Shown piece by piece: positions 1,931 to 58,799 of a DNA stretch of 64,000 nt; the first letter of the stretch is position 1, and the number at the start of each line of letters is the position of its first letter. The position numbers and the translations under genes are program-made. The notes under the pieces were generated by a model, which had not been told where the DNA came from, made no database searches, and was given only the letters and a program-made list of their open reading frames with translations. This DNA comes from a virus: IMG/VR virus record IMGVR_UViG_3300045988_151578; one strand, 5' to 3'.

Positions 1931-2707
1931 TTAATATTTATCAACTAATTCTGATAGATCTCTACTAAGCCCCTTCCAATCTTTTTTGTAAGCATGTAGA
2001 GAATCTATATTGTGGTATAAATAACCCGGTGCAACACCAACTTCTTTAGCAATGTAATTCTTTAATCTCCAAGCTAAGTATACATCGTTACCGAAGTGTT
2101 GTATATAATCTGAGGATCTCTGATTATATATCATATGAAGTACCTTTCTTCCGCCTATGTTCTCTCTTATTAAGAAATGATAATACATTGAACATGGTAT
2201 TCTTCTAGAACCATCAAGATAATCCTTATCTATAGTTGTATTCCATACACTTAATATTGCTTTACGAGTATCAGGATCATCTTTAAGTAACTGTATTACG
2301 TTGTCAATGTAATTATTACAATTATCTTTATAAAAGGCTAAATCATTAAATCTTTCATTATAGGTATAATCAAATACTCCATGATCATTACCTCTGTCTA
2401 CCAAGAATTGTTCCCAAAGATCCCTTCTTTCTTTCCAAGCTTCTCCCGGGTTTATAAAGCTTCTATTTATTCTCTCATTAAATTCGGCTTTAGCCCAATC
2501 ATATGAATGAGAGAATGTGAACAACCAAACTGGATCACCAATATCTATCAAACAATATGACTGAGCGATTATTTCCTTAGTTATATAATCCTCATTACCC
2601 TCGATATCTTTATTCTGATAATGTTTAGGTTTTACAGTAAAACCATAACTCCTTAATTCCCTGCCCATTTCTGACATGAGCTCAAATGAATTTCCAAATA
2701 TTCTCAT
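1931..2707 (-). CDS. Thymidylate-synthase-superfamily enzyme; motif pattern closest to deoxypyrimidine-nucleotide hydroxymethylases/methylases
   Basis: Colinear TS-fold motifs: DPDTRKAILSVWN, nucleophile Cys in RIPCSMYYHFLIRE, NQRSSDYIQHFGNDVYLAW (R-S-x-D then N-D) and SLHAY. The C-terminal region after the H-x-Y motif is much shorter than in ThyA. Confidence 0.65.
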   Translation of the reverse strand: MRIFGNSFELMSEMGRELRSYGFTVKPKHYQNKDIEGNEDYITKEIIAQSYCLIDIGDPVWLFTFSHSYDWAKAEFNERINRSFINPGEAWKERRDLWEQFLVDRGNDHGVFDYTYNERFNDLAFYKDNCNNYIDNVIQLLKDDPDTRKAILSVWNTTIDKDYLDGSRRIPCSMYYHFLIRENIGGRKVLHMIYNQRSSDYIQHFGNDVYLAWRLKNYIAKEVGVAPGYLYHNIDSLHAYKKDWKGLSRDLSELVDKY

Positions 2708-2747
2708 AGTTTTAATTATTTATTGTTAATCTATAGCAAACGGTCTA

Positions 2748-3683
2748 CTATTTACTGTTAGAGTTGTTTTTAGCTTCTCTTTTCATCTTAGCCAGGTATT
2801 TCTTTTTATAGGCTTTTCTTTGAGAAAAACTTATTATGTTCTCGGGATATTCAATATCATCTTCCTCTATTACTAAGTCCTTAGCATATAGGGGTCTATA
2901 AGTATATATATCTGGTCTAAGTACTTTAAAACTTCGGAAATATACCTTGAATGAAGAAAAATCCTTCTCTTCTCCCTTCTTAAACTTATCAAATACTGAC
3001 TTAACCTTAGTTACCCAGGGATTATCAATACCCTTTAATACCTTCTTAAGGGATTTATGAGTATGATACATGATAAGGGTCTCAGTATTACCATACATCT
3101 GGGTAGCAAATACATTTAGCTGTACCGATTGATTAGGTCCATAAATGTATTCAGCCATCCTCTGAACCAGTAAGAAATCAAAAATGAGCCTTTTAGTAAT
3201 TTCTGAAGCTCTTAATACCATAGTTATTACAGGTATATCTTCCTGAAATCTTTTAGAGAATGTAGCCGATATTAGGCATTGCTTACCATTATCATGCTTA
3301 TTATTGAAGATATAACTTACATTGTAATTCTGATTATATTTCACTTTTAGGAATCTTAACTTACTTCTAAGTAAATCTAGCTTGTTAAAATCAATATAAT
3401 TATTCAGCAAGCTTGACCATTTAGAACTTGTATAGTTAAAACACCTACCATAATCAAATTCAGGATCAACCCAGGCTTTTCTTATTCGAATAAATACGTT
3501 ATATACTACGGCTAATCCACTATTGGCTATAGCTCCTTTATTAAATAATATTGGGTTCAACTGTAAGAAGTACTCATTAAGTTTTTCCCATGCCTCCTGA
3601 GAGGTAGAGAACTCCAGAGTATGAATATTCTCTGAACAATCCATGTTCTCTAACCCCTCTAATTGTTTATTCCATCCAGACAT
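2748..3683 (-). CDS. Divergent second TS-fold paralogue, function unknown
   Basis: Hand alignment only. Matches are YTSSKW, NGKQCLISATFSKR (Cys), ITMVLRASEITKRLIFDFLL (R-x-S-E ... F-D) and VFATQMYGN, in the same order as the TS motifs. It carries a Lys-rich C-terminal tail of about 70 aa. Confidence 0.4.
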   Translation of the reverse strand: MSGWNKQLEGLENMDCSENIHTLEFSTSQEAWEKLNEYFLQLNPILFNKGAIANSGLAVVYNVFIRIRKAWVDPEFDYGRCFNYTSSKWSSLLNNYIDFNKLDLLRSKLRFLKVKYNQNYNVSYIFNNKHDNGKQCLISATFSKRFQEDIPVITMVLRASEITKRLIFDFLLVQRMAEYIYGPNQSVQLNVFATQMYGNTETLIMYHTHKSLKKVLKGIDNPWVTKVKSVFDKFKKGEEKDFSSFKVYFRSFKVLRPDIYTYRPLYAKDLVIEEDDIEYPENIISFSQRKAYKKKYLAKMKREAKNNSNSK

Positions 3684-3684
3684 A

Positions 3685-4533
3685 TTAATAATTAGTTTTT
3701 AATCTCCAAAGGTTTAACTTATACTTCTTAAAGTATAGATTAGTTATACTGTAACAATCAAATCCATACATCTTAATAAATCCCATAAATAAATAGAAGG
3801 CTTCTACGATATAATTTTGAACTTCATTTTCTTTAGTTAATACCTGAGTTTTCTTCCATGGTCTACACTTAAGATCATTTCTAGCCATATTAAGGCAATA
3901 GGTTATATGGAATATAGCCAATTTCTCTGTTCGGTGATAACCATAATTCATACGACTAAATCCCGGGATGTATTCACTATCGGATGATGTTTGGTAATCC
4001 ACTATATTATATGGAGCAGTAGTTATAGCAGAATCATCCATCTTACTTATAAGTAAATCACGTCCAACAGCCATTACCTGATTTAAATTGGTGCATACCT
4101 TGGTTATATACTTACCTGACCACCTTAGTAAATCACTACTATCAATGTTCAAATAAAGAAGGATAGTCATAAGGAATCCCAAAGCATCTGCCTGTTCTTC
4201 ACAAGCATTCTGCAATGTATCTTTTATATACTGGGTACTTTCATCATCTAACCTATCCATATTCCATCCAATAGAATCATTATTCAATAACTGATATACA
4301 GTATCGGTAGATTCAAATCCCTCATTTAGTTCCTCTATAACCCTACTTATAAAATCCTTTATGATCTCCTGATTACGAGGTATATTAATATTCATAGGAT
4401 AATCAGGTAATTGTTCTATACCACTATCCTTATAAGCTTTAAGTTGATCCTTAGCTATGTCGAATATAGTATCTAAAAAATTTAGATTATAGGAATCTAT
4501 AGATAACTTATCTTTAATATTACGTATATCCAT
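3685..4533 (-). CDS. All-alpha NTP pyrophosphohydrolase (MazG / dimeric dUTPase-dCTPase superfamily)
   Basis: E-E-x-x-E (VIEELNEGFE) is followed about 45 aa later by E-x-x-D (CEEQADALGFLMTILL), the MazG-type metal-binding signature. A second helical half contains KCRPWKK. Confidence 0.5.
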   Translation of the reverse strand: MDIRNIKDKLSIDSYNLNFLDTIFDIAKDQLKAYKDSGIEQLPDYPMNINIPRNQEIIKDFISRVIEELNEGFESTDTVYQLLNNDSIGWNMDRLDDESTQYIKDTLQNACEEQADALGFLMTILLYLNIDSSDLLRWSGKYITKVCTNLNQVMAVGRDLLISKMDDSAITTAPYNIVDYQTSSDSEYIPGFSRMNYGYHRTEKLAIFHITYCLNMARNDLKCRPWKKTQVLTKENEVQNYIVEAFYLFMGFIKMYGFDCYSITNLYFKKYKLNLWRLKTNY

Positions 4534-4535
4534 AA

Positions 4536-5312
4536 TTATAATTTTTCAGTTGAAATACCAGATCCCATACCATTAGACCCTCTATCACTACCATTAGATA
4601 ACTTATCATAAGCTTCATCGGTAGTTTCAAGTAATACGCTTTTGATATATGGTGTATGTAAGAATTGTATCAACCCCTTATTATTTGAATAAGTAGCCAT
4701 ATCCAAAGTTACAGATTTATCCCCTAAGTTAGCTAAGCCTATATGTATTTCACCAGTATAATCTGCATCTACTACTTCAGCAGTAAATATCAAGCCATTA
4801 TTAGTAGCCATACCAGATTTATTCTTAGCCAATAGACAAGTACCTTTATCTACTATCCATACCCTTATACCTGAAGGAATAGAAACTCTTCCGTTTGGTT
4901 TTATAACTATACTATCTATCTCTCCCAATAGATTAGTATTAAACAAACAGCGATGATATTTAGTTATATCAGAGGGTTTTAACAGTGGCATAAAGAAATC
5001 TATACCAGCATCATTGTTACAAGCTCTTCTTGGACATTTAACTTTCCTTAATCGAGTAAAGTAAATCAAATCTGATTCTACTAAATCCTCTACATCATCA
5101 TGAAGGTGAATTTTATTATTTCTCATAGTTTTCTTATCTTTATTTATTATTTCTAAACTACCATCTCCAACAAAATCAAGTCTACTCATAAATTCCTCTT
5201 TTCTTTTGGCTCTTTTAGCTTGATTTTCTTTAGAAATAGATTCGATATCTCTATAAAAACTGTAAAGCTTAAATTTAAAATTTGGCTTTTTATTTCTTTT
5301 ATGATTTACCAT
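4536..5312 (-). CDS. dut: Trimeric dUTPase with an N-terminal basic extension of about 60-100 aa
   Basis: All five dUTPase motifs are present in order: NDAGIDFFMP, KNKSGMA, AEVVDADYTGEIHIG, GLIQFL and SDRGSNGMGSG. The start could instead be an internal Met (MSRLDF or MRNNKI). Confidence 0.85.
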   Translation of the reverse strand: MVNHKRNKKPNFKFKLYSFYRDIESISKENQAKRAKRKEEFMSRLDFVGDGSLEIINKDKKTMRNNKIHLHDDVEDLVESDLIYFTRLRKVKCPRRACNNDAGIDFFMPLLKPSDITKYHRCLFNTNLLGEIDSIVIKPNGRVSIPSGIRVWIVDKGTCLLAKNKSGMATNNGLIFTAEVVDADYTGEIHIGLANLGDKSVTLDMATYSNNKGLIQFLHTPYIKSVLLETTDEAYDKLSNGSDRGSNGMGSGISTEKL

Positions 5313-5706
5313 ACATCTCCCTATAGATTTTCCTTACATCCTTAGAAGGTATTTCGAATTTCTCGGAGCATTTCTTTACTATATCTCTTCGAGTATATTC
5401 ACCCTTCCTCTTTAATCTACGGATATATTTCTTTAATCCTTGAACATCTATAAGAGTATCTAAGTCCTTGTAGTGATTTTTGCTTTCTAATTCTTTTCGG
5501 GTTATATTTAAGTTTTGAGACATCTTGAAAGCACATAATTCAGAATCACCACATATTCTACACTCAGAAGTACTTAAATCATAATTCTTACCAAAGCATG
5601 GATCTCCATTAGAACCTATAAACATAAAAGATATAGGTTCTAATGGATCCTGCTTAGTAAGATCTAACGTTTTTTTCTTTTTATTGATCTTACATATAGA
5701 GCTCAT
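5299..5706 (-). CDS. Hypothetical protein (Cys-containing N-half, basic C-half)
   Basis: ORF in track. It shares strand and packing with its neighbours and overlaps dut by 14 nt. No recognisable motif. Confidence 0.55.
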   Translation of the reverse strand: MSSICKINKKKKTLDLTKQDPLEPISFMFIGSNGDPCFGKNYDLSTSECRICGDSELCAFKMSQNLNITRKELESKNHYKDLDTLIDVQGLKKYIRRLKRKGEYTRRDIVKKCSEKFEIPSKDVRKIYREMYGKS

Positions 5707-5716
5707 AAGTTACACT

Positions 5717-6223
5717 TTAACAATAACTATATTGATACAATACGTGAACAATTCCAGACCACATACCATTTTCTTTTGCTACTTCTGAATAGTATGATGA
5801 ATCAGCCAATTCTTGAGGTATGCCGTATATAGTGTATAGCTGATTTTTCAGCTTAGCATCTATCAACTGGTTCTTAATACGAATAAGATCCTGAAGATTG
5901 GTCAAATAAAGAGTTAAACTCAATTGACTGTAGATTATACTAAAACGATAAACTGTAACCGGTCCCATCTTATTCTCCATGATGTTAGTTACAAATTTAT
6001 AATCCGGATCAATAAATATATTATTGCATATATCTATCTTTGGAGCCTCTTCTCTGGGTTTAATCACTTCTTCATCTTTAATATGGTTATCATCTGTAGC
6101 CATAAGAGTTTCTCCACAATTTTTACAGATAATCTTTACTTCCTTATCTGAAGGATTAATGTTAACCATGTTTTCAGTACCGCATTTTGGGCACTTAAAA
6201 GCTTCTTTTTTAAATCTGCTCAT
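5717..6223 (-). CDS. Hypothetical protein with N-terminal zinc ribbon
   Basis: CPKCG then CKNCG about 17 aa later. The track start at 6229 is a TTG; the first ATG is at 6223-6221. Confidence 0.6.
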   Translation of the reverse strand: MSRFKKEAFKCPKCGTENMVNINPSDKEVKIICKNCGETLMATDDNHIKDEEVIKPREEAPKIDICNNIFIDPDYKFVTNIMENKMGPVTVYRFSIIYSQLSLTLYLTNLQDLIRIKNQLIDAKLKNQLYTIYGIPQELADSSYYSEVAKENGMWSGIVHVLYQYSYC

Positions 6224-6292
6224 ATTCAAAGTATTTTTAGTTATTATTTAACATAATATAATAGGTCGAAAGTAATATTTAACGTACTGGTA

Positions 6293-6799
6293 TTATTCTG
6301 CAGTAATATGATTAATCAGCTCTGATATAAGCTTGTAGTCTTTCTCTCGATGATAAGCAAGTTTCTTTGAAATCATATTCTCTAGATTTGCAAAAGGATA
6401 AGCAAGGGTTCCATTTTCAAAATCCAATCTACTGTAGCTACTTCTTATGATATCAGAATTATCATGGGGATCCACTATGATAAGATTAATGATTACTCCT
6501 TTGTAATAGAAAGCAACATTATAGGTGTTCTTATAAGAGGGATCCATTTTAATATTGCTAGCATCAACCAAAGTTTGAATGGTAGATCTTATGGATAAGA
6601 ATTCAGGTTTATTAATAAGGATATCTACATCTCCCACCAAGTATCTATGCTTTTCAGCAAATTTAGGGAATTGTTGGTATAAAGCAACTCTGCCAGTAAT
6701 AGCAGTTTGTTCTGCAATGCTGTTCTTTATTAAAACATCAGCATAAAAGCTTTCGATAGCTTTGATATACTGTTCCTTAGTAAAACTTTTGTTAAGCAT
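6293..6799 (-). CDS. Minimal nucleotidyltransferase-fold protein (MNT/AbiEii-like)
   Basis: ITGRVALYQQ...HRYLVGDVDILI has the G-[SR] ... D-x-D pattern of Pol-beta-type NTases. A later acidic IIVDPHD and a C-terminal KKLAYHREKDYKLISEL resemble the R-x-KD-x-x-D/L tail of MNT-type proteins. It is the first gene after an early promoter. Confidence 0.45.
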   Translation of the reverse strand: MLNKSFTKEQYIKAIESFYADVLIKNSIAEQTAITGRVALYQQFPKFAEKHRYLVGDVDILINKPEFLSIRSTIQTLVDASNIKMDPSYKNTYNVAFYYKGVIINLIIVDPHDNSDIIRSSYSRLDFENGTLAYPFANLENMISKKLAYHREKDYKLISELINHITAE

Positions 6800-6837
6800 A
6801 ATTTTATAATTTTAAAGTGAAACAATTTATTTATATG

Positions 6838-6869
6838 CAAATATAATATATTTATTTTATATATGCAAA
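6838..6869 (-). promoter_or_regulatory. Early promoter, Bacteroidota sigma-A type (-33 TTTG / -7 TATATTTG)
   Basis: The minus strand reads TTTG (6869-6866), 20 nt, then TATATTTG (6845-6838). It sits in a block conserved with six other copies, and a 28-nt leader identical to the 59.96 kb copy follows. Confidence 0.7.
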
Positions 6870-6963
6870 TTTCTATTTATAATAAGCTGAGTTAAGTACT
6901 TATTGTTGTGGATTAGATCTTATCTTTTAGACCTCCTTATTTTTGGGATTTATAGGTAGTGCC

Positions 6964-6991
6964 TATCTTCAGTTCCCAGGAACTGAAGATA
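6964..6991 (-). terminator. 13-bp perfect hairpin downstream of the helicase gene
   Basis: TATCTTCAGTTCC-CA-GGAACTGAAGATA read directly. It lies 22 nt after the stop at 7013. No clear U-tract. Confidence 0.45.
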
Positions 6992-7012
6992 TGACATCAT
7001 AGTACTTATGAT

Positions 7013-8491
7013 TTATAGAGGATACGAGTATTTATGCCTATTCTTCGAGAGATCTATTACCTTTAACCCCTGATCTATATAATAATTCTTTCTATGCTTA
7101 CTATGCCTTGAAAGATATTTACCAGGGTAAGATAAATCATCTAAATAAACACGACTCTTAGTTTTACTGGTTCTTACTAATCGTCCTAAGAACTGAATAG
7201 ATTTTTCTTGAGAATCCATAGATGATGCCTGTATCATACATCTCAATAAAGGAAAGTTTTTACCACGAGCTATAATAGTAGTAGATATTAGGATATCTAT
7301 ATCACCATTCCTAAATTTATTCATTATATCTACTCTCTCTTTAGTTGGAGTATTTACATGTACACAGGCAATTTTATATTTCTTAAGTTTATCTTTCAAG
7401 AATGTATAAAGATTTTCTGCATGTTTAACATATTTGCATACTACGAGAGCAGGAACTCTACCGTATGACAAATTATATTTTAATCGGAATAATACCATTT
7501 GCCAATTACGAGTATTATTCGTAATCATATCATCATATAAATCCTTATAATCGGTATACTCAGATTCATAATTACCATACCAATATTTTCCAGGAACTAT
7601 TTTCACTATGGTGTTAGTAGAATATCCCTTTTTAATGGATTCCTTTAAAGTGAATTTAGCTATCTCAGGACCAAAAAAAGATTCAAGGTTAAAATTCTTA
7701 AGCTTATCCTTAGCTAATTTACTCATATATATGGTTCCAGATAAACCTAATCTTACCCGGGTATTATATAAATGAGTTATCACATTCTGATACATTTTAT
7801 TATTAGCCAAGTCTGCCTCATCTACTAATACCATATCAATTTTAGATAACTCTCTTTGATAGGTCTTTATATTCCGGGATATAGATTGGATCATACCTAT
7901 AGAGAATTGGGTCCAATTACTAACTTTACTACCCTGAACATAAGTTATGTTTTCATTTGGTAGGTATTTACAGAATTCTTGCTTAGCTTGTCTTAACCAA
8001 TCGGCATCATTAGTTATCAATAAAGTCTTTAGTTTCTTTTTAAAAGATAGATACAAAGCCGACATTATTAAACTCTTACCAGCATTTACCGTATAATTTA
8101 TTACACCAATAGGATATTGTACTCCCATAATTTGATTATGAATAACTGATTCTACGGCTTTAATCTGTTCGGGTCTTAATTTATACTCTCCTATTGATCT
8201 TATGGATTTATCTACTTTAGGTATTGGAGATCTTTCATCTAATATCCTAAAATCTTTATACCCATAACTGTGTAATAAATTTACTATCCTGGGTAACATA
8301 CCAATTTTAAATTGGCCTTTAGCGGAAATAAATTTTACTTTACCATCCCAATTAGCCATACCTCTGGCTCTAGTCCTTAAATAAAAAGCATTGGGATGTC
8401 TTATTGATAGGTCTTTATATAATTTTAAAGCCCACTTCTGAGGTATATCTACCTCTCCAACATTACAATTTTTAATTATTATCCTTCCCAT
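7013..8491 (-). CDS. Superfamily 2 DNA helicase (DEAD/DEAH-type, UvsW/RecG-like role possible)
   Basis: Motif I VNAGKSLIMSA, motif II VLVDEADL, motif III LSGT, motif VI QFLGRLVRT. Confidence 0.8.
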   Translation of the reverse strand: MGRIIIKNCNVGEVDIPQKWALKLYKDLSIRHPNAFYLRTRARGMANWDGKVKFISAKGQFKIGMLPRIVNLLHSYGYKDFRILDERSPIPKVDKSIRSIGEYKLRPEQIKAVESVIHNQIMGVQYPIGVINYTVNAGKSLIMSALYLSFKKKLKTLLITNDADWLRQAKQEFCKYLPNENITYVQGSKVSNWTQFSIGMIQSISRNIKTYQRELSKIDMVLVDEADLANNKMYQNVITHLYNTRVRLGLSGTIYMSKLAKDKLKNFNLESFFGPEIAKFTLKESIKKGYSTNTIVKIVPGKYWYGNYESEYTDYKDLYDDMITNNTRNWQMVLFRLKYNLSYGRVPALVVCKYVKHAENLYTFLKDKLKKYKIACVHVNTPTKERVDIMNKFRNGDIDILISTTIIARGKNFPLLRCMIQASSMDSQEKSIQFLGRLVRTSKTKSRVYLDDLSYPGKYLSRHSKHRKNYYIDQGLKVIDLSKNRHKYSYPL

Positions 8492-9364: not shown

Positions 9365-10315
9365 TCATAATGAGTTCTTCATAGATATAAGCTCTTGATA
9401 ATCTTGATAATGAAATTTATATACATATGATAAAACTTTATTTCTACCTAAGTCATTGCAATCCTTACCATCTGGTAAATATACTACCTTGACTTTTTTA
9501 TAAGCTACCAATTTTAAAGCTAGATTAATCGCATAAGCTTTAGCATCTGGATCTAGTAAAATAATGAATCTTTCTACCGGAGACTTAATAAGTTCGTTTA
9601 CTTGATAAGCACTTATGGACTTACCCATAGTAGCTATGGCATTATTTCCCATAGTTAAAGCATTAAAGGCTCCTTCACAAATAAACACCTTAGTATACAT
9701 ACTAAGTGCATCATGATTGTATATTATAAATTCTTTACCTAACCCAGTAGTATCTTTATTAGGATTAGAATATCTTGGTCCTGAACCTAAAACGTTTCTA
9801 GCATTGTAATATCTTAGTTCATTACCATAGAAAAAAGGTATTATAAGATAACCAAACAGATTACCTTCATGACAATAGCCAACTCCTTGAGAGGATAGTT
9901 GATTTATATCGAATCCTCTTTTTATCACATAATTTCTAATAGATCTAGCTAACTGGGATTTACCAAACTTTATATTTATAAATCCATCTGGAAGATATAC
10001 ATTCTTCTTTTCGGCTAATTCTATCTTTTCTTCCTTAAACTCTAAATCGTTAAATTCTCCTTTATTTAGAAAATCCAGAAGTTCTCCATAAGTATCAAAT
10101 CCTTCTATGTCCATTATTAATTGAGCTGGAGAAGGATGAGCATTACATCTGAAACAATTGCATCTATATAAGGATAGATTTACTCCCAACTTCTCTACTC
10201 TATGACAATAAGGACATACAGGTATCCTCATCCATCCATGTTTATAATCCCAAGCTCCTAGCCTTTTTACAAAATAGGACTTTAATTGAGATTTAAAGTG
10301 ATTGGTTATTTTCAT
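9365..10315 (-). CDS. DNA primase (zinc finger + TOPRIM, DnaG/T7 gp4 N-terminal type)
   Basis: Zn finger CPYCHR...CNCFRC. TOPRIM acidic residues are in ICEGAFNAL and ILLDPDAKA. Confidence 0.8.
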   Translation of the reverse strand: MKITNHFKSQLKSYFVKRLGAWDYKHGWMRIPVCPYCHRVEKLGVNLSLYRCNCFRCNAHPSPAQLIMDIEGFDTYGELLDFLNKGEFNDLEFKEEKIELAEKKNVYLPDGFINIKFGKSQLARSIRNYVIKRGFDINQLSSQGVGYCHEGNLFGYLIIPFFYGNELRYYNARNVLGSGPRYSNPNKDTTGLGKEFIIYNHDALSMYTKVFICEGAFNALTMGNNAIATMGKSISAYQVNELIKSPVERFIILLDPDAKAYAINLALKLVAYKKVKVVYLPDGKDCNDLGRNKVLSYVYKFHYQDYQELISMKNSL

Positions 10316-10475
10316 GTTCCTTCAAGAAATTATTTATGGTTTTTCTTATTTTCTTAATATCTCTTATACTAAGACAACCTATTGAAGTATATTGCCAACC
10401 ATTTTGGCTTATACTTAAACGGTATCCTCCAAACCTTTTAGTAATCTCTACGACGGGTAATTTCTTTTTGTTCAT
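10293..10475 (-). CDS. Small hypothetical protein between helicase and primase
   Basis: The track ORF 10293..10520 overlaps the helicase 3' end. An internal ATG at 10475 lies 1 nt after the helicase stop (TAA-T-ATG) and gives a 60-aa product, MNKKKLPVVEITKRF... Confidence 0.4.
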   Translation of the reverse strand: MNKKKLPVVEITKRFGGYRLSISQNGWQYTSIGCLSIRDIKKIRKTINNFLKEHENNQSL

Positions 10476-10476
10476 A

Positions 10477-11919
10477 TTATATATCTCCATTAAGTTTATT
10501 ACGTTTTTCTGGATCTGCATCTGGATTTACTCTTTTGGTTTTACCCTTAAGTTTTTCATCCAATTTAGAACCATATATTTGGTCATAATTCTTTCTTTGC
10601 TCTTTAGTGAATTCTACTGCACGTTGCCTATCTACATCTACTTTAAATAGAGCTCTTCCAAAAGGAACTCCATCTCTATTTACTACTATCTCCAATCTTT
10701 GAATATTATCTTTCTCTTCTTGAACTGTAGCATTTAAACCAAGTATACACTGAGCATTACGAACAATAGATATAGCTCCGGATATATCATTTTCCTCATA
10801 CCTAGTTTCCCTATGTTTAGCACCTTCTCTAGTAATATGATTAGCAGTCCATATACAATCTAATTGCATCTCATCAGCAAGATTTTGAATATCTACATAT
10901 ATATTAGATATCCTATCAAAATCTTCCTTATCCCTATTTATTGAAGCCAATTTAGCAGCATAGTCTATCATAACTACCCTAATATCTATACCCTGGTTAC
11001 GAAGTTTTATTATCATATTCCTTATATAATTACAATCTGTAATCATAGCAGGGACTCTATCAACTATAAACTCAACTCCAAATCTTGAAAGCTTTCTCAT
11101 ATGTTTAGCTTCAAGTTTATCATAATCTCCAGAATATAATTCCTTCTTAGTTTTATTAATAGAAGACTGGATCATACGGTCCATTATTTGGGTTTTACCA
11201 TTTTCTGTATCTATATATAAAACCGACTTCTTCATTCTAAGATAACCTCTTGCAGTATTAATCAGGAAGAAAGTTTTCTTAGCTTTAGGCTTATCCAATA
11301 ATACTATCACGGATCCTGAAGGAAAACCATTAGCATTGGTAAGTTGATTTAATTGCCTAAAAGGAGAAGGTATAACATCAGGTTCTGCTTGACGTTTAAA
11401 CTGTCTTTCGGTTATATCCCTAATAAGATATATAGGTTCATCCTCTTGCTTAGGTTTAGACTTCTTAAGGATCTGATCTACTTTCTTAGCATATTCCTCA
11501 TACTGATCAAAGTTATTTAGATCAAAAGAATCATTTAAGTTCTTCATCTCAATATAAGTAGAGAACTTATAAATCTTCTCTTGAATAAAATCAGCATCCT
11601 TTAGAGGTTCCTCATATAAATTACGTATAATCTTAAAAATGTTAGGAATATCATCCTTAGTAACTAAATCCACATATTCTTTAGATTCTAGTAATTCTTT
11701 TACTACTTCTTTTAGGATATTTTGAGAAGGAACATGAGAAGTTCTTTTATAATACTTAAACAATGCCTCGGCTATTAAAGCATGTTCTATTAAAACAAGA
11801 TAACTGGGTTTAATCCTTTTAATGAGTAAACCCATCTCCTTCCCCTGAATTAAAAATCTGAGTATTTCTAATTGGAAGTCCGTACTAAACTCAAACTTTA
11901 CTTTATTACGATTATTCAT
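10477..11919 (-). CDS. Replicative DnaB/T7 gp4-like hexameric helicase (RecA fold)
   Basis: Walker A-like LLDKPKAKKTFFLIN, Walker B VVMIDYAAKL and SGAISIVRNAQCILGLN. It sits next to the primase. Confidence 0.75.
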   Translation of the reverse strand: MNNRNKVKFEFSTDFQLEILRFLIQGKEMGLLIKRIKPSYLVLIEHALIAEALFKYYKRTSHVPSQNILKEVVKELLESKEYVDLVTKDDIPNIFKIIRNLYEEPLKDADFIQEKIYKFSTYIEMKNLNDSFDLNNFDQYEEYAKKVDQILKKSKPKQEDEPIYLIRDITERQFKRQAEPDVIPSPFRQLNQLTNANGFPSGSVIVLLDKPKAKKTFFLINTARGYLRMKKSVLYIDTENGKTQIMDRMIQSSINKTKKELYSGDYDKLEAKHMRKLSRFGVEFIVDRVPAMITDCNYIRNMIIKLRNQGIDIRVVMIDYAAKLASINRDKEDFDRISNIYVDIQNLADEMQLDCIWTANHITREGAKHRETRYEENDISGAISIVRNAQCILGLNATVQEEKDNIQRLEIVVNRDGVPFGRALFKVDVDRQRAVEFTKEQRKNYDQIYGSKLDEKLKGKTKRVNPDADPEKRNKLNGDI

Positions 11920-12048
11920 GTTTATAAGATTTTTAATAACTAATAGTTATATATTACTATAGTAGGTGGAAATGAGCCTGAGACCGGGTAGATTCATCTT
12001 AGTCTACTCCTTAATCCTCAGCTATATTTATAAATATATATGTATTTA

Positions 12049-12080
12049 TTTGCATATATAAAATAAATATTATATATTTG
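12049..12080 (+). promoter_or_regulatory. Early promoter, Bacteroidota sigma-A type
   Basis: TTTG (12049-12052), 20 nt, then TATATTTG (12073-12080). It lies 28 nt upstream of the ATG at 12108 in the same conserved cassette as the other copies. Confidence 0.7.
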
Positions 12081-12107
12081 CAAATATTATTATAATTTTA
12101 CACCGAT

Positions 12108-12758
12108 ATGAAAAGAGAAAGTTACAATGGTTCCGAGATACATCGACTAAAACCTATGAAAGATTATGATGAAAAGGTTTTTATGAAGATGTATAATCTA
12201 TGTAAACCCGTGATTAAAAATTTGGTATATCATATAGACTATAGGAGATTTAACCTTACTCCTGATATTATAGAATCTTACTTTTGGGATAAGATGCTAT
12301 ATGTTTTCAATAAATACTATGATTCTTCTACTGAAGAACATTTAAAAGCCAGGATATTAGCTTCTTTAAGTACTTATAAGAATAAATTATTAAGATATGC
12401 TTATAGTGATAAGGCTTCATATAATCAGAAATTATCTAAACTAGAAGATTTATTAGATAAGGATAAAGAAAGTTTAGATGATTCGGGAGATAATGAAGCT
12501 CTATCTGAAATGTGGGAGATGCTTAAAGATTATATGTATAAAAATCTATCAGAAGATGCTAAGCTTATTTTTGAATGTTTAGTTAGTCCTCCTCCATATA
12601 TAAAGGAAAGAATCAAAGAGGGTAGTAGAATAACTAACATGATATTACTAGAGTTTTTTGATATGCCTCGTACTAAGAGTTCTCTAAAATATATATCCGA
12701 AATAAGGGAGGATATTAATTACTGGTTAGATAGAGCTAAAAAGGATTTACATTATTAA
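12108..12758 (+). CDS. Putative phage sigma factor (sigma-70/ECF-like regions 2 and 4)
   Basis: The size, a region-2-like N-half (DEKVFMKMYNLCKPVIKNLV ... DIIESYFWDKML) and a C-terminal HTH-like segment (LSEDAKLIFECLV ... ITNMILLEFFDMPRTKSSLKYISEIR) fit. It is the only plus-strand gene in this region and has its own early promoter. Confidence 0.45.
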   Translation: MKRESYNGSEIHRLKPMKDYDEKVFMKMYNLCKPVIKNLVYHIDYRRFNLTPDIIESYFWDKMLYVFNKYYDSSTEEHLKARILASLSTYKNKLLRYAYSDKASYNQKLSKLEDLLDKDKESLDDSGDNEALSEMWEMLKDYMYKNLSEDAKLIFECLVSPPPYIKERIKEGSRITNMILLEFFDMPRTKSSLKYISEIREDINYWLDRAKKDLHY

Positions 12759-12770
12759 ATACACTAAATA

Positions 12771-12798
12771 AGGCAGAGGAATTCCTCTGCCTTATTTT
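12771..12798. terminator. Bidirectional rho-independent terminator between convergent genes
   Basis: Perfect palindrome AGGCAGAGGAA|TTCCTCTGCCT (12771-12792), with TATTTT after it on the plus strand and an A-rich run before it. Confidence 0.8.
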
Positions 12799-12803
12799 AA
12801 CGA

Positions 12804-14210
12804 TTATTTTTTACGGATAAGTACTAGTGTTATATGTGGTGGTAATATTACTATAGATTTTTGAGATGTTTGAGCTTTAACTTGATCTTCACTTTCTATT
12901 TGATTAGTAGTATAACCCCATTGCCTATTATCCTTATCATAATGTTTCTGTAAGTTAACATAAGGAGCAGGTGTTTTACCACTCCATACATTTACGGATG
13001 AACCACAATCTCCAGTAGTTAACATTGGATTATCCGCTGGTCCTGATTCTCCACTCATAGCAGTATCCTGAATTCCTAACATATGTTTATGCAATGGTAA
13101 CTCGGATTTATCTATGGTGAATTCATAAGTAGAATTAAATCCTCCAGTTTGGCCTGGAACATTAAAGTATATATTATCTTTAATACTTAATCCACCCTCT
13201 TTATAGCCTATTATAACTCTTCCTGCACCCTTATTGTACATCTCCCATCCATCGGGTATTTCCAGAGATTCCCATAACATAATAGCTCCTGAAGGAACTA
13301 GGGCATTCTTAAGTTCAGTCTGTACATAATCTTTTAATGAAGCTATTTGCTCATCTATATAATCTGTAACATTTTGCCCTTCATCACTATCTTCAGTAAG
13401 ATTACCAAACAGTTTATCATAATTAGATAAACAATCCATTACATATTTATGTATAGCTGCAGTATAGGGTATATTATTTGGCCAATTATGATTATAGGGT
13501 ATTAGACCATAATCTATCATTACTCCATCTACTGATCTTCTACCATATACTCCAATCAAGGTATGGTATATATCATCACTTGGTTTTTCACTACCAAGTA
13601 TATTTTCAAATACTAACCCTGATAGTCCTTCGAAAGAAAATACTGAAGTATCATATAAATCATGACGAGTTTTTTCGTTTTCCCATCCATCCCATTTAGT
13701 AGGATCCCGGGATATCTGATATAGATTATAGAACGAAGTTTTACTTTGTACATCATTAGATGTAATGTTTATGTTATCATGATTGAGATAATAAGCTTCA
13801 AATGCTAAGGTATCCGGTTTGGCTTCGGTATCTGGCCTATGCTTAGCAAATATGGCAATATCATACTCTTGGTCATTGCCCGTATTATTAGAATTAGCCA
13901 TAGGCACTGTAATATCCTGATCAGTAGCATGTAAATAACCATCAGAAGTTATACATACATTTACTGCTTGAATATTCTTGTTAATAGCCACATTATGGGA
14001 TTTAGCTAGGGCTTTTATATAATTAAGGATAGCTTTATTATCCTCTTTAACTGATGATGAATAACCTATAGTTACTACATCTCCACTCTTTCTGAAGTTA
14101 TTAAATCCACATATAGGACCTATGCCTTTAGTCATACATATAGCTTGGCTTAAATCCCAAGATTTAATATTACTTTCAAAATTAAAGTACGTCTTATAAC
14201 TATTAGCCAT
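12804..14210 (-). CDS. Tail fibre protein with phage tail-collar domain
   Basis: C-terminal PSGAIMLWESLEIPDGWEMYNKGAGRVIIGY ... ELPLHKH matches the tail-collar signature (P-x-G ... P-x-GW ... LP-x-H-x-H). Confidence 0.7.
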   Translation of the reverse strand: MANSYKTYFNFESNIKSWDLSQAICMTKGIGPICGFNNFRKSGDVVTIGYSSSVKEDNKAILNYIKALAKSHNVAINKNIQAVNVCITSDGYLHATDQDITVPMANSNNTGNDQEYDIAIFAKHRPDTEAKPDTLAFEAYYLNHDNINITSNDVQSKTSFYNLYQISRDPTKWDGWENEKTRHDLYDTSVFSFEGLSGLVFENILGSEKPSDDIYHTLIGVYGRRSVDGVMIDYGLIPYNHNWPNNIPYTAAIHKYVMDCLSNYDKLFGNLTEDSDEGQNVTDYIDEQIASLKDYVQTELKNALVPSGAIMLWESLEIPDGWEMYNKGAGRVIIGYKEGGLSIKDNIYFNVPGQTGGFNSTYEFTIDKSELPLHKHMLGIQDTAMSGESGPADNPMLTTGDCGSSVNVWSGKTPAPYVNLQKHYDKDNRQWGYTTNQIESEDQVKAQTSQKSIVILPPHITLVLIRKK

Positions 14211-14870: not shown

Positions 14871-17800
14871 TTACTTATTTAAAATTAAAGTTAATTCAGA
14901 AGAATACTTGCCTGTTGTTGGTTTATATATAGACTTAAGTTGTAAGTTCTCCTTTACTATCTGTACTTTATCTCCTATTTTAAAGGTAGTATTTACTAAC
15001 TCTTTAAAGTCTTCATTATTATCTTGCAATATAACTTTTAATTCTTGAGTATCATCACCAGAATATCTTCTTAACAGTATATTATGTACAGACAATGTCC
15101 AATAACCATCTAAAGGACCTTGGTCATTATTGATGGTGTTAAAGAAATCATTAGTACTATCACCTATATCCTTTGGACCAATACTAAGAGTAAGTGGACC
15201 AAGAGTATTAGTAGATAACAACAAATCCATACTTACCAACTGATATCTGGTACCAGTTAACATATTCTTAAATTTTACGGTTATCTCATAATCTTTTAAC
15301 CCTCCTACAGCTTCGCTTAAAACTAATTTAGCTGTTATGTCTGAGTTATCATCACACTTATATACATAAGTACCAAAATCAAAAAAGCTAACCACTAATG
15401 GAGTTTTACCCGAAATAGGGGAAGGCTGACTACTTTCAGGATCTTTCATATCGGCTGATGATAAGCTTACATTTACTCCTTCTAGATAATCTCCGTTTTC
15501 ATTTCTTGCTTTAAGTGTACTTACATTTTGTTTATTAATAACACTACTACTACTTGGATCCCATATTAAAGAAGAAACTTCAGAACTAATAGTACCAGAT
15601 CTACATACAAAAGTACTCTTAGAGAATATATCTCCATACACTACTTTTAATGTAGTACTACCTATACCCAGTGAATAATCAAATTTGTAGGTATCCCCAT
15701 ATTGCTGTATATTAGTTTCTACTAAACTCCATTGTGATTCAGGTAAAGTTACCAATCCCATATCACTATATACTTTGACTTTACTCAGATCCAAATCTTG
15801 TATGTAATTACCCTTTGAGTCTTTAACTTTAAAAGATACTTTTATAGTACCAGGAGAAGTTAAAGCTTCAGATTGAGGCTCTATCTCTACAGATTTTGGA
15901 TAAGTAACATCATTAACTACAAAATCAGCAGATAACTCGGGATTATCATTAGATTTAAATGTATAAGTACCTGGAGCAGTTGCTCTAAATGTAACAGGTG
16001 AACCATTTAATGAACCATCTGGCATTACTATCTTATAAGTATTAGATGATATTGCCTGCTCATTAGTGTCAACCAGATATACATTAGTATCAGCTGTACC
16101 AGAACTGGGCATATCCAAAGTCTTAGGATCACATACTATACCTCCAACTGTTTGAGAAGAACTTAATATTGTAAATGTTGCTGAAGCTAAAGGCTTATCT
16201 GTTTCTCCTATTTGGTCTATAACACTTGACTTTATGGTATAGGTACCTATTAAACTGTTATCATTGGGTAACCCACTTCCTATTAGTGTTAAAGTATTGC
16301 CTGATACATTTTCAAAGCCAGGTACTAATTTATTATCCTTATATAAACTATAATTTAAACTATTAGCTACACTAGGTTTATTCGTAGTGACGTTTACCTG
16401 TATAGTTACTTTACCGTCTTCTGGTCTGTATACCACTGTTGAAGGAGTACAAGTTATCACTACTTGCAATGATAGATCTTCTACTTTAACTTCACAGTTG
16501 GTATATAACCCAGAATATCTAGTCCATCCTATATGATTATTTTCTATTGTATCACCGATATTATAGGTCTTACCTGTTTCTGTACCTGATACATTAGAAT
16601 CTTTATTCGGGTCATAATCTTCAGGTAGAATATATTCCCTAATGGTATCTGGGTATTCAGCTGTTTCTCCATCTATACTCCCCAATATCCTAAATTTAGC
16701 CTTATCATCTTCTGAAGCTAATTTATATATGGCTCTGGTAGTTTTGGTATTCCAATCACTTTCAAGTGGTGATACCCAATTCTTAGTATCTATGGGAGAA
16801 ATATAACTACTCTTTACATCCATTATGGCTATAGGAGTATAGTTTACATATCCTAATTTAGAAGTTAATTGTAGAGTATAACCATGGTTTATATTACCAT
16901 TTAGTATATCTACTCTAAACTTTACTGGAACATTACCAAAACCATCTGGGAATAATTCTTTGAAACCGCTTGTTGAAGGTCCTATATATGGTACGGTATA
17001 ATCTATATCCCCATTTTCAAAAAGATTAACTTGACTAGCATCCATATCATACCAATAAGGAGTTATAGTATATATGTATGGCCACTCATCTTTATCATCT
17101 TCGGTATTATTAGAAGAACTACCACTAAAAAGTAATTTACTCTTAGCTTTAACTACTAACCTTATACCACTAACAAATCTTAAACCTTCAGTATCATGTG
17201 ATTCATCTACTGTAGGCCTTACCTTAAACTTAAATGTACGTTCACTGTCTGAAGAAGATAATAATTGTATGCCCTCATTATTTACCTTGTTATTTTCAAG
17301 ATAAACCGTAGAGGGTGAAAATTCATATTTATATGAACCATCAAATACTCCCCAACCCCTTTCTAATAAGTAAGTACTTACGTTTATTTGATTTGGGTCC
17401 ATAGTACAATAGAAGTAATACATTACTCCAGTAGAAGGAGGAGTAAATATATCTCCATAGGAATATTCCTCTGGTGATCCTATGCGTTTAATCTTAAGTA
17501 ACTTTGGGTTATTTATAAACTTTGGGTCCTTAGTATCTACTATAAGCTTAACTTTAAAATCAGATAAAGGCTGATCCATGTTTTCTTGTGATGCCTTATA
17601 TTCTGAAACGTAAGTGCTTATATCCTCATTTGGGTTACCCATCAATACTTTATAGGTATATTCTGGGTATGACATGACATTATAAACTTTAGTAGACTGA
17701 GGGTTACCTTTATTGTCTAATAAATAAAACCTATAAGTACCAGGTAACTTAGCTTTGTAAATATTACCTGATACTTCAATGTTACTTGGACTGTAGTATA

Positions 17801-47825: not shown

Positions 47826-48845
47826 TTAGGGCCTTAATAAGCATTTCCTAAACCATAATCCTATCTCATATACGGATCCTTTTGCCAAAGTATACCTTGC
47901 CTTATTTAACCAATAATCATACCTATCCTTATCCATGTAAATTTTATACCTTTTGGGAAATCCCATTATGTGTTTTATATCCTGTATACCTAAAGGATAA
48001 CCATCAGGTCTAAACTGTCTATCTGCAGGTCTTACTGTAAGAGGACATCTATCTGGATCTAATTTATATACTCCAGGTAAAGTTGACATCTTCTTAGTCT
48101 TGATAGGCCATTTTCTTTCATCTTTAAAATCTGTATCCCATAGCTTTTTAATTTGGGATACGGTTAAATTTTTCTTTTCAGGTAATTCCCTATAATCATA
48201 CATCGCTAAAGTTTTATTTAAACTCGGCATATAATTCTGATTATTTCCATTAAAATAGGCAGGTTCCAGTAAATTTCTAGAAACTTTTATAGTATTTATG
48301 CTAAATATATTATTAAACTTATTTACTAAGCTCTTATATTTATCCTTTATACCTATAATAATTAACCTATTCCTAGACTTCTGAGAATTACCAAACTCTG
48401 ATACAGAATGGCAATGATATACCAAATGATAACCCTTAAAGGTATTTTCCCATACTCCTTTTGGTATTAGATCCAATAATCTGGGTAAGTTTTCTATTAG
48501 GAATATCTCTGGCTTATAATGAAGTATACACTCTATCACTAAATTAATGGACTTATTTTTTTCAGGTTTACCCAAAGTTTTAACTTTAGATAACCTCATT
48601 ACTGAACTAGCTCCACAATCTGGTGATGATAAGATTATATTTGGATGTTCAAAATCTAAGTATTTTTCTCTTAGAAATGGTACTTGGTTAAAGTTAAGTT
48701 TCCACTGTTCTTCTAGAGGAGTATGAAATACTCCTCTAGATTCAATGTTTCCTATTAGATGTTTTCTAAATGGGAATAATAAAGCTCCTTGACCAGCACA
48801 TACACCAAGTACCTTTAAGTTTTTAAAGGTAATCTTTCCAGGCAT
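47826..48845 (-). CDS. DNA (cytosine-5) methyltransferase
   Basis: C5-MTase motifs in order: I GVCAGQGA, IV SSPDCGASS (catalytic Cys), VI LIENLPRL, VIII NSQKSRNRLIIIG, IX IMGFPKRY, X LAKGSVYEIG. Confidence 0.75.
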   Translation of the reverse strand: MPGKITFKNLKVLGVCAGQGALLFPFRKHLIGNIESRGVFHTPLEEQWKLNFNQVPFLREKYLDFEHPNIILSSPDCGASSVMRLSKVKTLGKPEKNKSINLVIECILHYKPEIFLIENLPRLLDLIPKGVWENTFKGYHLVYHCHSVSEFGNSQKSRNRLIIIGIKDKYKSLVNKFNNIFSINTIKVSRNLLEPAYFNGNNQNYMPSLNKTLAMYDYRELPEKKNLTVSQIKKLWDTDFKDERKWPIKTKKMSTLPGVYKLDPDRCPLTVRPADRQFRPDGYPLGIQDIKHIMGFPKRYKIYMDKDRYDYWLNKARYTLAKGSVYEIGLWFRKCLLRP

Positions 48846-50678: not shown

Positions 50679-51152
50679 ATGCAAGTATTTATACCTTATG
50701 CACAACCAATAGATGTTGCACAAACTCTATGGAATGATCAAAAACGTTATAATAAACAGATCATAGAATGTATTCAGATACTAAGAGCTATGGATGGACA
50801 TACAGCTTGGTCTAATCATCCTGTAGTTAAGATGTATAAAAATAACCGTGACTGGTTAGTATGTTATGCTAAATGTCTTAGTAGTTATCGTCTATTTAAG
50901 GAAACTGGAGATAAGAAGTATATAGGTGAAGCTAATGCTTGGAATATTAATGCTGATAGTTGTAGACCTGACTTTATAAAGAATAGCTTTATAAATAAGG
51001 ACGAGATACTTATTCAGCATAGAAAGAGACTTTATACAAAAGCTCCAGAATTATATCCTCAGTTTATTAAGTATGGTACTAGTGATATAAATTATTACTT
51101 CGTAGATGGTAAAATATTAAAATACAGAAATGGTAAACTCATAGAAGATTGA
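50679..51152 (+). CDS. Pyr_excise-like protein (pyrimidine-dimer DNA glycosylase family resemblance)
   Basis: L-x-NDQKRYNKQIIECIQIL ... AWSNHPVVKMY resembles the LD-x-KRL-x-KQR-x-E-x-x-QIL ... NHP signature as I remember it. It is preceded by a perfect AGGAGG 8 nt upstream of the ATG. Confidence 0.4.
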   Translation: MQVFIPYAQPIDVAQTLWNDQKRYNKQIIECIQILRAMDGHTAWSNHPVVKMYKNNRDWLVCYAKCLSSYRLFKETGDKKYIGEANAWNINADSCRPDFIKNSFINKDEILIQHRKRLYTKAPELYPQFIKYGTSDINYYFVDGKILKYRNGKLIED

Positions 51153-58428: not shown

Positions 58429-58799
58429 TGCTGTAGGAAAATCTTCTTGAACTTGTAGTTGATCATTTGAGCAACTGCAATATATTCCATGTATGTATCA
58501 TTAGTGATAGGATTGGGTTCTTGATTTACCCAATGCAGATATTCACTGAATGTACCTTCGAATTCTATATCGTGTAGCGGAAAGATCTTTTGAACTGATA
58601 TCTTTACGAAATCCTCATTCTTAAGGGTTTTTACGAAATCTTCAGGATTTACATCGGTTGGGTTAGGTATACCCTTATGATAAGCCACTATATCATATTT
58701 GTTAGCGACATTATGAACCATAGTAAAATCATTGAAACTGTTAATCCGGGCATGGTCATTTAAAGCTAAGTTCATAATTCTTAGCTTATTATCATCCAT
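58425..58799 (-). CDS. Hypothetical protein
   Basis: ORF in track. It overlaps the upstream ORF by 8 nt. Confidence 0.5.
   Translation of the reverse strand: MDDNKLRIMNLALNDHARINSFNDFTMVHNVANKYDIVAYHKGIPNPTDVNPEDFVKTLKNEDFVKISVQKIFPLHDIEFEGTFSEYLHWVNQEPNPITNDTYMEYIAVAQMINYKFKKIFLQQ

Follow-up and report, generated by a model that had tools for sequence, protein, structure and literature searches.

A conserved adjacent pair of thymidylate synthase-fold genes beside a phage DNA polymerase, and its possible role in making modified cytosine nucleotides

Two genes for thymidylate synthase (TS)-fold proteins stand side by side near the DNA polymerase gene in a 64,000-nucleotide stretch of viral DNA (IMG/VR record IMGVR_UViG_3300045988_151578; the whole stretch is called the window below), and we report as a new finding that genes of these two kinds form a fixed adjacent pair that is widespread among phages. 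In the window the pair, open reading frame (ORF) 1 and the highly diverged ORF2, belongs to a module of four minus-strand genes, ORF4–ORF3–ORF2–ORF1, that lies directly upstream of the gene for a family-A DNA polymerase (PolA). An earlier note on this DNA had named the products as two TS-fold proteins, an all-alpha nucleoside triphosphate pyrophosphatase (NTPase) and a trimeric dUTPase. All four genes were located where it had placed them, and the four identities were correct, as judged by Pfam and PHROG matches and, for ORF2, by an AlphaFold model and Foldseek. To our knowledge, every known pyrimidine modification of phage DNA that is made at the nucleotide level begins with an enzyme of the TS superfamily, and each characterized case that we know of (T4, SPO1, Xp12 and RB69/AfhB) relies on one such enzyme. 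On balance we favour, with modest confidence, the reading that the module makes C5-modified deoxycytidine monophosphate (dCMP) at the nucleotide level and that PolA incorporates the product; the earlier proposal of cytosine modification is a reasonable hypothesis.

The pairing is strict. A hidden Markov model (HMM) of the ORF2 family found a member at each of 12 diverse cassette loci, either directly before the cassette TS gene or a short distance upstream of it. Of 80 IMG/VR relatives of the window phage, 79 have an ORF2-like gene next to an ORF1-like gene, and in the remaining one the contig end cuts the locus; in many of the cassettes the ORF2-like and TS-like genes overlap by 1–4 nucleotides. 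The core order of the cassette is (thymidylate/deoxynucleoside monophosphate (dNMP) kinase, often)–all-alpha NTPase–ORF2-like–TS-like–(dCMP deaminase)–PolA, and its carriers are phages of Bacteroidota, Bacillota, Actinomycetota (including Mycobacterium phage Muddy) and Pseudomonadota (Table 1). The proteins annotated as 'hypothetical protein' before the TS gene in Muddy and Strzyga were homologous to ORF2 (hhalign probability 94–95%, E ~8e-8). A separate ORF2-family gene was absent from three control TS loci, those of Maribacter phage Molly_5 (whose TS is glucosyltransferase-linked), DLP4 and DLP3; at the DLP3 locus the sole match to the ORF2-family HMM was gp80 itself, and it was weak. Proteins in which an ORF2-like and a TS-like part are fused were not found among 150 family representatives, the long members having low-complexity tails instead. 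The nearest GenBank record, MT121960, reads dUTPase–all-alpha NTPase–ORF2-like–ThyX–second ORF2-like–ORF1-like–PolA. The earlier note had remarked that two paralogues are not the textbook arrangement. This is correct, but the arrangement is not peculiar to the window phage, and the divergence between ORF1 and ORF2 is much too great for recent paralogues.

ORF2 was assigned to the TS fold from its predicted structure. As a single sequence it had no match in Pfam, NCBIfam or the PDB; its only family match was a PHROG of unknown function, and no description of the ORF2-like family was found in the searched literature. An exhaustive profile search showed the family to be small, with 151 clusters at 50% identity. 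An earlier model built from 38 close homologues was poor (predicted local distance difference test (pLDDT) score 61) and gave no significant Foldseek match, and the shallow profile found no PDB match and aligned to the ORF1 family with an hhalign probability of 0.2%; a diverse alignment was needed. With a family alignment of 79 diverse sequences, AlphaFold2 returned a model of high confidence (pLDDT 93.5, predicted template modelling score 0.89). Foldseek matched this model exclusively to TS-fold structures in the PDB, at a probability of 1.0, in the order HY126 AfhB (E 1.4e-5), the CMP hydroxymethylase MilA (3e-5), T4 dCMP hydroxymethylase (1e-4 to 6e-4) and then ThyA proteins. Against the viral library BFVD, two uncharacterised family members came first, followed by TS and dCMP-hydroxymethylase entries. 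These results uphold the earlier description of ORF2 as a second, very divergent TS-fold protein; the modelled fold is TS-like and strongly remodelled.

ORF2 retains residues of the catalytic type. Positions in the TS fold are given here in E. coli ThyA numbering, with residues of ORF1 and ORF2 in their own numbering where so stated. In the profile–profile alignment, C136, R158, E161 and D169 of ORF2 align with Cys146, Arg166, Asp169 and Asn177; position 143, counted from the catalytic Cys, is Gly. In the AlphaFold2 model the strand that bears the Arg leads into a helix in which D169 is the fifth residue, a position that we take to be held by Asn177 in E. coli ThyA. C136, R158 and D169 were invariant over the 79 diverse sequences and E161 nearly so, and they persist out to the actinophage members of a family whose mean column identity is 22%. 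Thus Cys as the nucleophile, Arg for phosphate binding and Asp for reading the base stay constant against a highly variable background, a pattern typical of an active site. Bearing on ORF2 from the other side, a manual alignment puts NQNY in place of the (S/T)RR pair of TS, which serves the partner subunit's site, so that the Arg126/Arg127 pair is missing, and folate-binding motifs were not recognisable. These features would suit an ORF2 that has the TS fold but no catalytic role, as a pseudo-enzyme, scaffold or regulatory subunit, with ORF1 alone carrying out Xp12-like dCMP methylation or T4-like hydroxymethylation. Translational coupling of the two genes fits a stoichiometric complex of this kind, and in E. 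coli five of seven deaminase-linked TS homologues with Asp177, plus the Xp12 enzyme, sufficed alone to give 5-methyl-dCMP (10.1101/2024.12.05.627091). The homologues active alone in that assay may, however, be methylases of the DLP4 type, with full ThyA architecture and without an ORF2-like neighbour, and the invariant triad argues for catalysis. We therefore regard a non-catalytic ORF2 as unlikely. In one distant member of the family, P0358 (JGI sample 3300075153), the next gene encodes a metallophosphoesterase instead of a TS-like protein (dUTPase_2–ORF2-like–Metallophos–unknown), on a 3.6-kb contig too short to show whether a TS-like gene comes later.

ORF1 is a short member of the TS family. 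It matched Pfam Thymidylat_synt (PF00303) at E 9e-17 and PHROG 160 at E 2e-28, and the motifs quoted from it in the earlier note were present. Its score against the best NCBIfam thymidylate synthase equivalog model was 65.1 bits, compared with a cutoff of 174.55 bits. The family profile of ORF1 matched the cytosine-specific TS homologues AfhB (1.2e-10) and MilA (2e-7) in the PDB ahead of ThyA (6e-7). Three independent alignments, which included S. aureus TS, MilA and AfhB of phage HY126, agreed on the register of ORF1, and the resulting residue equivalences are listed in Table 1. ORF1 ends 19 residues past SLHAY, against about 55 in E. coli ThyA, and the C-terminal tail that closes over the folate is missing. 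The signature by which ThyA is specific for deoxyuridine monophosphate (dUMP) and forms a methyl product, namely Asn177, His147 and Leu143, is replaced in ORF1 by Asp, Ser and Arg. The earlier note had put Asp at the base-discriminating position of both TS-fold proteins, and the alignments agree (D208 in ORF1, D169 in ORF2). Enzymes specific for dCMP are marked by Asp at 177, and in MetaGPA no other positions distinguish cytosine-modified contigs from unmodified ones as well as 177 and 147 do (PMC8670742). From Asp208 at the Asn177 position and Ser173 at the His147 position, ORF1 reads as cytosine-specific, and we predict from its sequence that it is a dCMP C5-modifying enzyme.

The nature of the modification is harder to read. 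Position 143 is associated with the product, which is hydroxymethyl or hydroxy where the residue is acidic and methyl where it is hydrophobic; the acidic residue at the Leu143 equivalent (D145 of T4) is thought to admit water, and Asn at 169 is the mark of 5-hydroxy-dCMP synthases (PMC13326640). The product of ORF1 cannot be read from these published signatures, because its Arg143 falls outside both the acidic (hydroxymethylase) and the hydrophobic (methyl-forming) class. The possibility that ORF1 is a 5-hydroxy-dCMP synthase was rejected, as it has Asp200 instead of Asn at the 169 position.

Residues of the same kind recur throughout the cassettes. All 12 cassette TS proteins have Arg143, Thr or Ser at 147, Asp169, Asp177, Gln or Lys at 127 and a short C-terminus. 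By Arg143, Asp177, the change of Arg127 to Gln or Lys and the missing C-terminal tail, the cassette TS forms a clade of its own. Some members of this clade coexist with dedicated enzymes for thymidylate (dTMP) synthesis. In Microbacterium phage Triscuit (L095, 3243-4948), the cassette clade is represented by gp66 (Arg143/Asp177) and canonical ThyA by gp67 (Leu143, His147, Asn177, Arg126/Arg127); both are annotated as 'thymidylate synthase', and with the ORF2-like gp64 the module counts three TS-fold genes. Because a canonical ThyA adjoins the cassette TS in Triscuit and MT121960 carries ThyX, dTMP synthesis is not the role of the cassette TS. ORF1 as an ordinary thymidylate synthase was accordingly rejected on its signature residues, its NCBIfam score and the coexistence of ThyA or ThyX in related cassettes.

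It is also possible that the pair supplies dTMP by another route, in which it would convert dCMP to 5-methyl-dCMP, and this or its triphosphate would be deaminated to dTMP or dTTP with no dUMP intermediate and no lasting modification of the DNA; the dCTP pool would thereby become a source of thymidine nucleotides. A gene of the dCMP-deaminase family directly follows the TS-like gene in many cassettes, and a published phage deaminase from a similar neighbourhood turns 5-methyl-dCTP into dTTP (10.1101/2024.12.05.627091). The route would also be compatible with the conserved C5 DNA methylase described below. That published deaminase, however, acts alongside full 5-methylcytosine replacement and not in its stead, Triscuit and MT121960 already own ThyA or ThyX, no deaminase was found among the scanned window ORFs or in flanking sequence of the 98%-identical relative L003, and the route leaves ORF2 unexplained. 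We consider it distinctly improbable.

The neighbourhood of the pair links it to modified DNA. Two New England Biolabs (NEB) studies that selected metaviromes for modified cytosine found TS(Asp177), an NTPase of the PRA-PH type, dCMP deaminase and PolA together on modified contigs specifically (PMC8670742; bioRxiv 10.1101/2024.12.05.627091). The TS–deaminase–PolA adjacency of those studies is the cassette arrangement described here. The same type of neighbourhood, experimentally tied to cytosine-modified DNA (10.1101/2024.12.05.627091), relates the module to the Xp12/Pamexvirus type, in which 5-methylcytosine replaces cytosine completely: in both, a TS homologue with Asp177 adjoins an all-alpha NTP pyrophosphatase close to PolA, and in the wider cassette a dCMP-deaminase-family gene is usually next. 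The architecture of the enzyme differs, however. The TS of the Xp12 relative DLP4 is full-length and ThyA-like, with Asp177, Asn143, Arg21, Glu58, Arg126/Arg127 and a long C-terminal tail, and it adjoins a gene for dihydrofolate reductase (DHFR) with no ORF2-like gene; loci of the Xp12 type usually have, besides DHFR, a 5-methylcytosine-selective deaminase in the vicinity. ORF1 shares only Asp177 with it, has Lys for Arg127 and lacks the tail, and neither DHFR nor deaminase was found among the scanned window ORFs. ORF1 was therefore rejected as a dCMP methylase of the Xp12 type, whose relative DLP4 represents another architecture, without the ORF2 partner.

The module resembles that of T4 in other respects. 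The T4-type toolkit invoked in the earlier note finds a counterpart in ORF3, which shares a Pfam family with the gp56 dCTPase, and both modules are near a DNA polymerase. Like gp42, ORF1 is a short TS-family protein with a catalytic Cys (Cys172), Asp208 at the Asn177 position (D179 in T4), Thr or Ser at the His147 position and no ThyA-type C-terminal tail; the local likeness to gp42 that had been pointed out is real, with FLIRE and SLHAY in ORF1 for YLIRD and SLHVY in T4. In contrast to gp42, ORF1 has Arg instead of Asp or Glu at the water-gate position 143, as have all 12 of the cassette TS proteins examined, and hhalign related the ORF1 family to gp42 at a probability of only 38%. The window module further differs from T4 in its extra, obligatory second TS-fold gene, in the absence of a kinase or glucosyltransferase among the scanned window ORFs, and in the presence of a conserved DNA C5 methylase.

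Structural comparison pointed most directly to the enzymes of the AfhB, RB69 gp48 and DLP3 gp80 group, which are short TS-fold proteins with Asp177 and gave the best PDB structural and sequence matches for both ORF1 and ORF2. ORF2 could, on this ground, be a flavin-dependent dCMP 5-hydroxylase of the AfhB/RB69 gp48 kind, yielding 5-hydroxycytosine or a derivative. AfhB was the top Foldseek match of ORF2, with a TM score of 0.56 normalised to the target, and its entries were the only PDB sequence matches of the ORF2 profile (E 0.06); it was also the top PDB match of the ORF1 profile. The diagnostic D169N change (PMC13326640) is nevertheless absent from both proteins, ORF1 having Asp and ORF2 having Glu where the control DLP3 gp80 has Asn, and no arabinosyltransferase, glycosyltransferase or NDP-sugar genes were found among the scanned window ORFs. 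A hydroxylase of this kind is very unlikely in our view.

The other two genes of the module encode predicted nucleotide-clearing enzymes. ORF3 matched Pfam dUTPase_2 (PF08761) with 27.5 bits, above the gathering cutoff of 22.9, and T4 gp56, with the sequence taken from the T4 record, matched the same family with 25.4 bits; a direct BLASTP comparison of ORF3 with gp56 was not significant. T4 gp56 and all of the cassette NTPases fall in PF08761/PF01503, and ORF3 is predicted from its family to be a dCTPase/dUTPase. ORF4 matched PF00692 (28.9 bits, cutoff 22), PHROG 135 (2e-19), dUTPases in the PDB (1.4e-6) and NCBIfam dut (3.5e-14; 52.7 bits, under the equivalog cutoff of 103), and the dUTPase motifs AGIDF, KNKSG, DADYTGE and RGSNGMGS were recognised by eye. 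The basic N-terminal extension of ORF4, of about 100 residues, is kept in L003 (259 amino acids) and absent from MT121960 (196 amino acids) and L010 (184 amino acids).

Taken as a pathway, the four genes would together shape the nucleotide pool from which the neighbouring phage DNA polymerase draws. ORF4 would clear dUTP, and ORF3 would hydrolyse dCTP, possibly also dUTP, to the monophosphate, so that dCTP is kept out of DNA and dCMP is supplied. ORF1 and ORF2, each a Cys-dependent TS-fold protein with a cytosine-reading Asp, would then jointly turn dCMP into a C5-substituted dCMP, which kinases would phosphorylate and PolA would incorporate. In this scheme the pair would be an obligate functional unit, acting either as consecutive enzymes or as a hetero-oligomer. 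We infer dCMP as the substrate from the Asp177 and Thr/Ser147 signatures; the dCTPase activity of ORF3 and the incorporation of the product into DNA are likewise presumed steps. As to the chemistry, the missing ThyA-type tail of ORF1, together with the lack of a DHFR gene among the scanned ORFs, leans towards a non-reductive, hydroxymethyl-like reaction, and the conserved DNA C5 methylase would fit a 5-methylcytosine product, or partial replacement, better. The most defensible description is a dCTP-to-modified-dCMP module that resembles those of T4 and Xp12 but is set apart as a type by its obligate pair of TS-fold proteins.

Several observations weigh against the proposed synthesis and incorporation of a C5-modified dCMP. 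The similarity of ORF2 to TS is at the level of the fold in Foldseek searches of the PDB (TM scores 0.35–0.56). The hhalign match of its family to the ORF1 family is weak (probability 19%, E 1.2e-3, 70 columns), and the few ORF2-family members that match the cassette-TS HMM directly do so weakly (E 8.5e-6 to 8e-4); sequence-level support for ORF2 is weaker than structural support, but it is consistent in register. Arg at position 143 of ORF1 fits none of the published product signatures (PMC13326640). The earlier note had suggested looking through the genome for a dNMP kinase and for glycosyltransferases; neither these nor a dCMP deaminase or DHFR were present among the window ORFs that were scanned, which did not include every small ORF, and none of the four was found just past PolA in L003. 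In the searched literature no DNA modification is reported for the well-studied carrier Muddy, and nothing was found on DNA modification in the C. perfringens phages, Strzyga, Opt-155 or the Flandersviridae.

A further point is a gene elsewhere in the window for a C5 cytosine DNA methylase-like protein (Table 1), with motifs intact and kept across the phage family on the same contigs. Its homologues, at 62–94% identity, are on contigs of 75–97 kb, several of which are equal in size to ORF2-bearing contigs, and their motifs are invariant; motif IV reads SPDCG instead of containing the usual PC dipeptide. The retention of invariant motifs indicates a selected enzyme, which requires unsubstituted C5 in DNA. 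Total replacement of cytosine is therefore disfavoured, because the methylase would have no substrate in the phage DNA if every cytosine were C5-substituted. The methylase agrees with partial replacement, with 5-methylcytosine as the shared end-product, or with the absence of DNA modification, and only poorly with complete replacement by 5-hydroxymethylcytosine.

A further reading goes beyond the proposed synthesis of C5-modified dCMP. Phages of four phyla consistently have, beside the replicase and a TS of a separate clade, a second, unannotated TS-fold protein whose active-site triad is intact; this points to undescribed chemistry or an undescribed enzyme architecture. The ORF2-like family could be an unrecognised catalytic branch of the TS superfamily, obligately associated with the Arg143/Asp177 clade and possibly forming a heterodimer with mutually completed active sites, and the pair could make a cytosine nucleotide unlike the products of the known hydroxymethylases, methylases and hydroxylases, for example a further-derivatised 5-(X-methyl)-dCMP. 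We put this forward tentatively, as possible but less likely than not.

Table 1. Features of the window, ThyA equivalents of ORF1 residues, and cassettes in other phages
Feature	Position	Strand	Basis or remarks
PolA (family-A DNA polymerase), N-terminal part	1..~1887	-	continuous PolA-like frame translation; truncated by window start
ORF1, short TS-family enzyme of the cassette clade	1931..2707	-	Pfam, PHROG, alignments; Arg143, Cys146, Ser147, Arg166, Asp169, Asp177
ORF2, highly diverged TS-fold protein of unannotated family	2748..3683	-	AlphaFold2 model, Foldseek, profile alignments
ORF3, all-alpha NTP pyrophosphatase (dimeric dUTPase/MazG/T4 gp56 type)	3685..4533	-	PF08761; PHROG 12184 and 173
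ORF4, trimeric dUTPase with ~100-residue N-terminal extension	4536..5312	-	PF00692, PHROG 135, PDB, NCBIfam dut
C5 cytosine DNA methylase-like gene	47826..48845	-	PF00145 2.5e-11; motifs SPDCG, ENL, QxSRxR
ORF1 residue	Arg148		ThyA Arg126
ORF1 residue	Lys149		ThyA Arg127
ORF1 residue	Arg169		ThyA Leu143
ORF1 residue	Cys172		ThyA Cys146
ORF1 residue	Ser173		ThyA His147
ORF1 residues	Arg197-Ser198		ThyA Arg166-Ser167
ORF1 residue	Asp200		ThyA Asp169
ORF1 residue	Asp208		ThyA Asn177
Cassette, C. perfringens phage H1			core order
Cassette, two unrelated metagenomic phages			core order
Cassette, Mycobacterium phage Muddy	gp49–gp44		core order
Cassette, Brevundimonas phage Strzyga			core order
Cassette, Serratia phage Opt-155			core order
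Cassette, Gordonia phage Feastonyeet			core order
Cassette, Streptomyces phage KimJongPhill			core order
Cassette, Microbacterium phage Triscuit			core order
Pseudomonas phage STP12 (unannotated record)			only the ORF2-like/TS-like pair, by HMM

The four-gene module is compact, with intergenic gaps of 2 nucleotides between ORF4 and ORF3, 1 between ORF3 and ORF2 and 40 between ORF2 and ORF1. A PolA homologue likewise follows the TS-like gene in MT121960, where it is annotated as DNA polymerase 1, and in L003. The enzyme has 766 amino acids in L003 and 1421 in MT121960, the larger size apparently being due to intein or homing-endonuclease-like insertions; the two ORF2-like paralogues round ThyX and this polymerase occupy 5182-7781 and 9441-13706 of the MT121960 locus (L001). 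Upstream of the module in the window are genes for a helicase, a primase and a DnaB-like helicase, and the remainder of the window holds virion genes of a contractile-tail phage (sheath, baseplate, tape measure, major capsid protein, portal and terminase). The window has a GC content of about 31%. Hundreds of human-gut contigs, 80–89 kb long, carry homologues; the window phage is an abundant human-gut phage and, from the fit of gene order and morphology, likely belongs with the proposed 'Flandersviridae' of Bacteroides (PMC8008677).

Other features of the window and of related loci were recorded in passing. A Cys-rich protein of 135 amino acids (GDPCFGKxYDLSTxECRxCGDSELC) is encoded between the helicase and the dUTPase (5299-5706, minus strand), overlapping the start of ORF4 by 14 nucleotides; it has no family match and is kept at the equivalent position in the distant gut phage MT121960 (2358-2747). 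A DenV-like pyrimidine-dimer DNA glycosylase (PF03013, 2.7e-8) is encoded at 50679-51152 on the plus strand, in a plus-strand block where the GC skew flips. At 58792-59436 (minus strand), in an otherwise unannotated early region, is a hexapeptide-repeat (LbH) acyltransferase-like protein (PF00132, 1.5e-13), and the tail/baseplate module contains an ORF of 1416 amino acids (14871-19121, minus strand) that matched neither PHROG nor Pfam. In L010, a Flanders-like relative, a rubrerythrin/ferritin-like gene lies upstream of the helicase (1291-1878) and an HNH endonuclease between the TS-like gene and PolA (7656-8177). At the control locus of Molly_5 (L093, 1-4382), the TS homologue has Asp143 with Asn177 and comes directly after a beta-glucosyltransferase and two NDP-sugar enzymes; with this dUMP-hydroxymethylase-like signature, the locus looks like a glycosylated 5-hydroxymethyluracil system.

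The pairing of the ORF2 family with the cassette TS suggests an uncharacterised route to modified cytosine in DNA. Should the further reading above hold, in which the pair makes a cytosine nucleotide unlike the known products, a DNA base or pathway not yet described would be present in a very abundant family of human-gut phages, in the therapeutic phage Muddy and in many other cultured phages. The carriers in culture include Muddy, phages of Gordonia, Streptomyces and Microbacterium, C. perfringens phages and a Serratia phage, so that the proposal is directly testable. In current annotation pipelines the cassette TS is labelled 'thymidylate synthase', which is probably wrong, and its ORF2-like partner 'hypothetical protein'. 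Modification of a base would bear on how phages evade restriction and CRISPR, on the bias with which abundant gut phages (likely 'Flandersviridae') are sequenced and enter libraries, and on how therapeutic phages behave.

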